Below, piece by piece: positions 18,132 to 18,258 of a stretch of DNA of 27,992 nucleotides. A program made the position numbers and the translations under genes. The notes under the pieces are model-generated. The model was not told the DNA's origin, did not search any database, and was given only the letters and a program-made list of their open reading frames with translations. Numbering within the stretch: the stretch's first letter is position 1; every line of letters begins with the position of its first letter. The DNA comes from an uncultured Eubacteriales bacterium (GTDB lineage Bacteria > Bacillota > Clostridia > Oscillospirales > Acutalibacteraceae). Where the stretch lies: assembly GCA_964394885.1 (NCBI GenBank), contig CAYMZO010000001.1:1-27992 (forward strand), written 5' to 3'.

Positions 18132-18221
18132 TTAGCTAACGACAAATGGTGTTGCCTGAAAATCCGGCACATTTCTATATTTTAAATACAACCCGCACCT
18201 ACAACTGTCTGCGCCGTCCAC
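18132..18221 (-). CDS. Unannotated 29-aa leader peptide upstream of mgtE: MDGADSCRCGLYLKYRNVPDFQATPFVVS
   Basis: GTG at 18221 preceded by GGAGGTGA (18233-18226) at optimal spacing. Open frame to TAA 18134-18132. It lies wholly between the mgtE promoter and the mgtE start. Confidence 0.7.
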   Translation of the reverse strand: MDGADSCRCGLYLKYRNVPDFQATPFVVS

Positions 18222-18258
18222 AGGCTCACCTCCACTACTGGATTTTTATTACCTATTA

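Follow-up and report, generated by a model that had tools for sequence, protein, structure and literature searches.

Magnesium homeostasis in Firmicutes is textbook M-box territory, with the M-box riboswitch (ykoK, RF00380) controlling mgtE in many of these organisms, and to our knowledge the control of Mg2+ import by leader peptides is known only from enterobacteria (MgtL and MgtP). In the case of MgtL, ribosomes pause or drop off in a Mg2+-sensitive manner near the beginning of the leader ORF on account of the acidic residues E2 and D4, which changes the state of the RNA further down, so that the importer is turned on when early elongation is disturbed at low Mg2+; enterobacterial MgtL is further marked by an EPDP motif, and its translation in E. 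coli is modulated by the ABC-F protein EttA (PMC11282234). The pe20 M-box of M. tuberculosis comes with a conserved and translated uORF2 (Rv1805A) that is described as specific to mycobacteria and has a conserved Pro7 (PMC12810186). The "mgtE motif" riboswitch candidate of Thioalkalivibrio (Breaker lab, 2024) is restricted to one gammaproteobacterial genus and is proposed to be an RNA-only element, with no uORF (PMC11109978).

The locus described here, from a gut bacterium of the Clostridia, lies on the minus strand of the window, by which we mean the whole analyzed stretch of 27,992 nucleotides, and all features are given on this strand unless stated otherwise. The regulated gene, mgtE (16719..18074), encodes a Mg2+ channel of 451 aa with Pfam MgtE_N, CBS and MgtE domains and has orthologues of 45-84% identity across the order. 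Its sigma-70-type promoter, TTGACA-17-TAAACT (18259..18287; 10/12 matches in a consensus scan), is composed of the -35 element TTGACA at 18287..18282, a 17-nt spacer and the -10 element TAAACT at 18264..18259 and has an equivalent, TTGACT-17-TAAACT/TAAAAT, at the same place in the genus-level relatives L004 and L005. The transcript is predicted to start near 18252, and the resulting mgtE leader of 178 nt contains an extended Shine-Dalgarno (SD) sequence, GGAGGTGA (18226..18233), 7 nt before a GTG at 18221 that opens a leader ORF (uORF) of GTG, 28 codons and TAA in the ORF list, MDGADSCRCGLYLKYRNVPDFQATPFVVS (18132..18221). The stop codon of this uORF (18134..18132) lies 57 nt before the mgtE ATG, and both the stop and the gap rule out that the uORF is an N-terminal extension of mgtE. 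The earlier note had picked out the same promoter, SD, GTG and 29-codon ORF 57 nt ahead of mgtE in a leader of about 180 nt, and all of this is indeed present. It had also seen no M-box, which our Rfam searches bear out: RF00380 (gathering score of 44 bits) has no match in the window, none at E<=10 in 17900..18500 and none anywhere in the assembly (95% complete), compared with scores of 98-103 bits in control genomes and relatives. None of the Rfam families matches the window at its gathering score, a permissive all-family cmscan of 17900..18500 (E<=10) returned nothing related to Mg2+, and RF01056 (Mg_sensor) is among the matches of neither scan. PyrG_leader (E 1.3), sroB and miRNAs appeared in these scans as chance-level matches and were discarded.

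Opposite mgtE, a divergent ZnuA/ABC_tran/ABC-3 metal-uptake operon on the plus strand (18398..19360, 19357..20100 and 20097..20933) has a perfect TTGACA-16-TATAAT promoter (18353..18380, plus strand), so that two metal-uptake systems share one intergenic region of 320 nt. Between the two divergent promoters, directly upstream of the mgtE -35 element, we note an 8-bp A/U-rich palindrome, AAAAGCAU-7 nt-AUGCUUUU (18289..18311), which is flanked by U-runs on both strands, falls below the G-C threshold of our scan and might act as a terminator in both directions, as an insulator or as a site for a regulator. Inside mgtE, codons 11-18 form a 9-bp hairpin that runs into a U-rich tract, GAUCUCCUU-GAAA-AAGGAGAUU UUUCUAAUU (18023..18044), with an arm, UCUCCUU, that is also anti-SD-like. 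This hairpin is kept with variable loops in 5/5 genus-level loci, is rare elsewhere (17/122) and could stop transcription when mgtE is untranslated, which would couple a translational switch to mRNA synthesis. The locus or part of it is contained in eight gut-metagenome DNA runs, and no RNA sequencing run carrying it is among the runs listed for the locus.

Conservation of the uORF was assessed in two content-blind sets, an order-level sample of 105 mgtE upstream regions from genomes across the order and a close clade of 122 unique leaders (mgtE of 62-84% protein identity), the latter all from Oscillospiraceae, Acutalibacteraceae and Ruminococcaceae MAGs and gut metagenomes. A uORF was called where an SD of no less than 6/7 complementarity to the 16S tail stood at a proper distance from a start codon and a loosely defined N-terminal motif followed; the counts reported here follow this complementarity rule, since detection by regular expression is blind to GGAAGUGA and AGUGGUGA SDs and to S, N or G at residue 2 and therefore undercounts. 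The combination of SD, start codon and short ORF was found in 111 of the 122 close-clade leaders and in 63 of the 105 unselected order-level leaders, compared with 19.5 of 227 (~9%) when leaders were shuffled, though the compared leaders are phylogenetically related and these statistics overstate their independence. Conservation in orthologous leaders, on which the idea of the earlier note depended, is thus found at both levels. Family-wide, the SD of the uORF is conserved in G-rich positions -12..-9 and an A at -5. BLAST-type DNA searches with the leader gave a single 36-nt match in 41 relatives, so that similarity of leader DNA is too low to follow beyond the genus, and a 46-nt nhmmer profile of the SD-start block, which is too short a profile, reached no significance. 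Neither a second copy of the uORF element nor a CorA match was found in the own genome of the window, and four uORF peptides that we searched match no Pfam or NCBIfam family.

The uORFs carry a clear signature of coding. All 174 of them start with TTG (78), ATG (55) or GTG (41) and no other codon, and without any length filter frame 0 is closed before codon 15 in none of the 174 leaders and ends within 15-45 codons in 170, whereas early closure affects the +1 frame in 61 and the +2 frame in 148 leaders. Start-anchored conservation over codons 3-8 amounts to 0.53, 0.76 and 0.29 bits at codon positions 1, 2 and 3, a 3-nt periodicity that was weaker in a second computation, and variable sites in three groups of close relatives number 10/2/13 at these positions for codons 2-12 compared with 37/34/38 from codon 13 to the end, where codon-position bias is absent. 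Among 111 distinct N-termini of uORFs selected without any peptide criterion, 106 have Asp or Glu within residues 2-6 (the first acidic residue being at position 2 in 74 and at position 4 in 25), against a background of about 29% for residues 12-21 of the same ORFs. From these comparisons, the uORF is not a chance ORF and is probably translated; only its first ~10 residues appear constrained, and the remainder must seemingly just stay open, which rules out a functional small protein. In the window, the part that is conserved by periodicity, codon-position counts and early Asp/Glu comprises codons 1-8, M-D-G-A-D-S-C-R (18198..18221), corresponding to M-D-G-A-D-S/G-x-R in the family, and on comparative grounds these codons are the sole part of the peptide under peptide-level constraint. 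A uORF before mgtE, MGSDKPKPRSRQT, and another before corA, MSPDPGSRSRQT, have RSRQT in common but encode its Arg by CGG and AGA, respectively, and the Ser codons of the conserved block are nearly always AGY, which could reflect a constraint at the RNA level. As a side observation, the mgtE uORFs of L013 and L026 (MEPGSTCSPEPDGRRRYILKY and MEPGSKRSPDPDGQRR..., respectively) resemble enterobacterial MgtL, as its peptide sequence reportedly reads, in their charge pattern and Pro/Asp motifs. Our informal description of the family is an extended SD with ATG, GTG or TTG, an ORF of 15-45 codons, Asp/Glu in residues 2-6, small residues next and Arg at ~8-10, an initiation region paired with the distal uORF, and a location directly upstream of mgtE, mgtA or corA, and the window displays each of these traits.

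At the RNA level, the free window leader folds better than its shuffles (z -3.0). Helix A, seen in the MFE and centroid folds, joins segment 1 (18210..18230), which holds part of the SD, the start codon and codons 1-4, to segment 2 in uORF codons ~16-25 (18148..18174, with the helix A pairing at 18171..18148). It is followed by hairpin B (18122..18143; GUCGUU...AACGGC), with the uORF stop UAA in its loop, which is kept across the genus with U-G/U-A and C-G/A-U exchanges; the uORF ends before this hairpin in L112 and L191, and hairpin B is perhaps a spacer or an insulator. Hairpin C (18081..18112), conserved in the genus-level set, buries the mgtE SD and consists of an anti-SD arm, GUCUCCCUU (18112..18104), a loop (18103..18090) and an SD arm, GAGGGGGAU (18089..18081). 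Its anti-SD UCUCCCUU is paired with the mgtE SD GAGGGGGA, which leaves the latter with P(unpaired) = 0.02 when the leader is free. A U-tract terminator is missing from the leader. A 7-mer, AGUAGUG, occurs both directly before the uORF SD (18233..18239) and directly before the anti-SD (18112..18118), a repeat that is probably coincidental or strain-specific because it is not conserved in genus-level relatives.

The same nucleotides permit a second, mutually exclusive arrangement in which AAAUGUGCCGGA of segment 2 (18174..18163) pairs with UUCGGUACGUUU in the loop of hairpin C (18101..18090). In four genus-level relatives, these nucleotides pair with the loop plus the anti-SD and differ in a compensating manner, and helix A shows C-G to U-A compensation in the genus-level set (RNAalifold). 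Across 125 unique leaders, the helix A duplex, which covers the SD, the start and about six codons, has a median z of -2.25 relative to shuffles, and in 76 leaders segment 2 complements the stretch that directly precedes or overlaps the mgtE SD better than shuffles do (median z -2.21); the best partner overlaps the SD itself in 22 of these 76, where the logic of the switch could be inverted. For an independent subclade of 24 sequences with MSSDSS/MNSDSS-type uORFs, RNAalifold finds an equivalent long-range helix unprompted, with the distal uORF paired to the loop of the SD hairpin. Of the cells of this helix, 87.5% are paired compared with 70.2% in shuffles (0/500 reach this value), and its covariation score is 0.648 compared with 0.335 in shuffles and 0.07-0.26 in slid controls. 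A covariance model of the genus-level helix A (R1) recovered the genus and two weak matches only and was therefore of no use for covariation across the family. Both alternative pairings are thereby directly supported, and the leader comprises what defines erm-type attenuation, namely a leader ORF and four segments with mutually exclusive pairings of which the last holds the regulated SD.

We hold with moderate confidence that the mgtE leader works as a translational attenuator that depends on ribosomes and has a translated leader ORF at its core, with Mg2+ supply as its most likely signal. In the leader without a ribosome, helix A and hairpin C would both form and mgtE would be off. A ribosome dwelling on the conserved first ~7 codons would hold segment 1 open and keep segment 2 accessible, which could then pair with the loop and the anti-SD side of hairpin C, free the mgtE SD and allow mgtE to be translated, whereas a ribosome running on would cover segment 2 and terminate in hairpin B, upon which the off state would re-form. 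We infer this direction of the switch, as well as the pausing step itself, for which codons 1-8 are the proposed dwell site. Mg2+ supply would most likely act via early elongation of the acidic N-terminus (D2 and D5), as it does for MgtL (E2 and D4), or might alternatively enter at initiation or through helix stability. At low Mg2+, a ribosome that is slow in early elongation or stays long on the initiation region would expose the mgtE SD, and rapid transit at sufficient Mg2+ would bring the off state back. An IRD-type mechanism is not assured, because the window has D-x-x-D compared with the published D/E-x(0,1)-D/E and many uORFs of the family have one acidic residue only.

Folding of the window leader with a masked ribosome agrees with this attenuator model. 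Placing the P-site within codons 1-6 lets the alternative helix form, and the mgtE SD, with P(unpaired) = 0.02 in the free leader, reaches 0.34-0.53. Helix A and hairpin C remain intact, and the value remains 0.02, once the ribosome has moved to codon 8 or beyond or has arrived at the stop; these folds are free of pseudoknots, and a partial pseudoknot in which the loop is paired and hairpin C is kept would mean "off" rather than "on". The positions that open the SD in the model (codons 1-6) coincide with the conserved codons (1-8). Among 58 leaders folded in this way, early positions exceed late ones by more than 0.1 in 14 and the opposite is seen in one, so the effect is present in some subclades only and elsewhere hairpin C stays closed in the equilibrium model. 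The leader-peptide attenuator that the earlier note had placed before mgtE is retained, as a uORF conserved inside a switchable RNA that buries the mgtE SD is best read as a ribosome-based, MgtL-like attenuator, but its stall site was wrong. The VPDFQATP segment proposed for stalling belongs to the unconstrained part from codon 13 on and differs even within the genus, on which grounds we reject it. The Pro residues of the window peptide (19 and 25 only) both fall into this part, and the "PDFQ" leader ORFs that the note mentioned for other Clostridia come down to one of 174 uORFs, which is that of the window.

A different use of the same RNA would be coupling gated by initiation, in which helix A is the sensor through a stability that depends on Mg2+ or temperature, ribosome loading or uORF translation remodels the downstream RNA, and the peptide matters little beyond efficient early elongation. 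The SD and start codon are buried by helix A in most leaders, and a ribosome at codon 1 of the window, equivalent to an initiation complex, already opens the mgtE SD in the model. In the subclade with MSSDGSYGQR uORFs, even a ribosome at the uORF stop opens it (0.34-0.77), yet the SD of the window stays closed in that position. We regard such gating as rather unlikely, since it leaves the peptide-level conservation of codons 2-12 and the near-universal early Asp/Glu unexplained.

Improbable in our view is an RNA-only element, a riboswitch-like sensor of Mg2+ or another ligand in which the SD-like GGAGGUGA would do no more than serve as an anti-anti-SD strand next to an ORF that arose incidentally or is not translated. 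The stable fold of the leader, the covariation of its long helices and the preference for AGY among Ser codons are what such an element would predict, but it would not predict that frame 0 stays open in 174/174 leaders while the other frames close, that start codons are exchanged among ATG, GTG and TTG only, that conservation has a 3-nt periodicity with variation depleted at second codon positions, or that the same conserved peptide is made from AGA and CGG codons for Arg. Beyond codon ~10, moreover, there are no conserved unpaired nucleotides of the kind that an aptamer needs (information <=0.3 bit), and the leader is without any Rfam match.

The genes downstream of the uORF point to Mg2+. 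We searched without regard to gene identity for a nucleotide pattern of SD, start and MD[AT]G[SG], using the reversed pattern as control, and obtained 39 matches in 401 genomes of the order and none with the control. Of the 31 order matches that were examined, 28 are directly upstream of mgtE, two precede MgtA-type P-type ATPases (TIGR01524, 1029 bits compared with a cut-off of 611) and one is at a contig end. At the level of the class, 151 genomes yielded five further matches in three other families, all before mgtE, which brings the total to 33 mgtE genes, two MgtA-type ATPases, one contig end and no reversed-pattern controls. Related uORFs with a strong SD, MS[PS]DPGS..., were also seen in 4 of 30 corA leaders of the same family. 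The two uORFs before genes of MgtA-type Mg2+ P-type ATPases, L332 (G236:C13) and L314 (G396:C9), begin with MDAGS..., and genome G236 has the element twice, before mgtE and before mgtA. This association was observed directly and, in the genomes searched, appears exclusive to Mg2+ importers of three unrelated families, from which we infer Mg2+ as the signal.

The relation of the uORF to the M-box is consistent with such a role. M-boxes are rare in order-level mgtE leaders (8/105), and in six of these eight (L011, L018, L019, L072, L077 and L080) the M-box comes first and a uORF follows in tandem about 90-250 nt further on, still upstream of mgtE. The view that the leader peptide replaces the M-box is hence correct only in part and too simple. 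As the uORF lies downstream of the M-box in six of eight cases, the two are separable modules able to act in series, and the arrangement suggests a two-layer control in which the riboswitch would govern transcription and the uORF switch translation.

That the uORF might instead sense something other than Mg2+, be it the supply of charged tRNAs for Asp, Ser and Gly codons, the overall capacity for translation or, through an EttA-type ABC-F protein, the energy state, with importers tuned to ribosome demand, draws on the dominance of Asp, Ser and Gly among the conserved codons and on the modulation of MgtL translation by EttA in E. coli (PMC11282234). We consider this very improbable given that the uORF is confined to three unrelated families of Mg2+ importers, stands in series with the Mg2+-sensing M-box and lacks the repeated identical codons that mark classical amino-acid attenuators. 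That both the ORF and its SD came about by chance in an AT-rich leader, as might be suspected because short ORFs are common and the motif arises in about 9% of shuffled leaders, has a negligible probability, being refuted by recurrence, frame openness, periodicity, the pattern search and the early Asp/Glu.

If our preferred reading of a ribosome-dependent attenuator is true, it explains how mgtE is regulated without a riboswitch in these organisms and extends the use of ribosomes as sensors of Mg2+ (or of translation capacity) far beyond Proteobacteria, while about 100 divergent natural N-termini would be at hand for studying how early acidic residues affect elongation. The uORF element appears to be the dominant type of mgtE leader in the Oscillospirales, which are abundant anaerobes of gut and rumen, and it is also found before MgtA- and CorA-type importers and in other orders of Clostridia. 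It is possible, though we say so only tentatively, that it represents a widespread ribosome-based Mg2+ sensor of Clostridia in which an acidic N-terminus with small residues makes early elongation sensitive to Mg2+ and an erm-like switch controls MgtE, MgtA and CorA, alone or in series with the M-box, as a Gram-positive counterpart of MgtL that is either convergent or anciently related. Leader-peptide attenuation of Mg2+ import as such is already known, but no publication describing the present element was found in the literature searched, in which coverage of subscription journals is thin.

Compared with known systems, the element appears by analogy to share the working principle of the MgtL and erm attenuators. 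Like the MgtL/mgtA leader of Salmonella and E. coli (RF01056), it features a short ORF within the leader RNA of a Mg2+ importer gene, with acidic residues right behind the start (E2 and D4 in MgtL; D2 and D5 in the window, where translation is probable; first acid at 2 or 4 in the family) followed by basic residues around positions 8-12, and the position of the ribosome selects between alternative RNA helices, here in the model. Unlike MgtL, the window has no Rfam match and belongs to another phylum, and its N-terminus is not proline-rich and lacks the Pro codons of a motif such as EPDP. Its output appears to be translational through sequestration of the SD, and neither a Rho site nor a terminator is evident in the leader. 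The initiation region of the uORF is tied up by pairing with the distal part of the same uORF, and the uORFs are longer (19-45 codons) with a free C-terminal part. The M-box, too, precedes mgtE in a few relatives (L011, L018 and L019), but it combines a structured aptamer with a terminator and has no ORF, and it is absent from both the window and the assembly. The pe20 uORF2 is similarly a small translated uORF between a Mg2+-sensing leader and Mg2+-related genes with a translational expression platform, yet it depends on the M-box and on Rho, and its peptide has no similarity to the uORF peptides described here (PMC12810186). The "mgtE motif" of Thioalkalivibrio is, like our element, a structured mgtE leader other than the M-box with a stem that includes the SD and AUG of the main ORF (PMC11109978), but it differs in that the leader of the window has a uORF and the window has no Rfam match. 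As in ermC-type attenuation, pairing of segments 1:2 and 3:4 buries the SD while pairing of 2:3 frees it, and the trigger would be a ribosome held in the first codons of the leader ORF, as our masked folds suggest. The inducer of ermC is a macrolide acting with a specific nascent peptide, whereas no drug is involved here and the regulated gene encodes a Mg2+ channel, and our element differs further by the additional hairpin B and by using the loop of the SD hairpin as the alternative partner.
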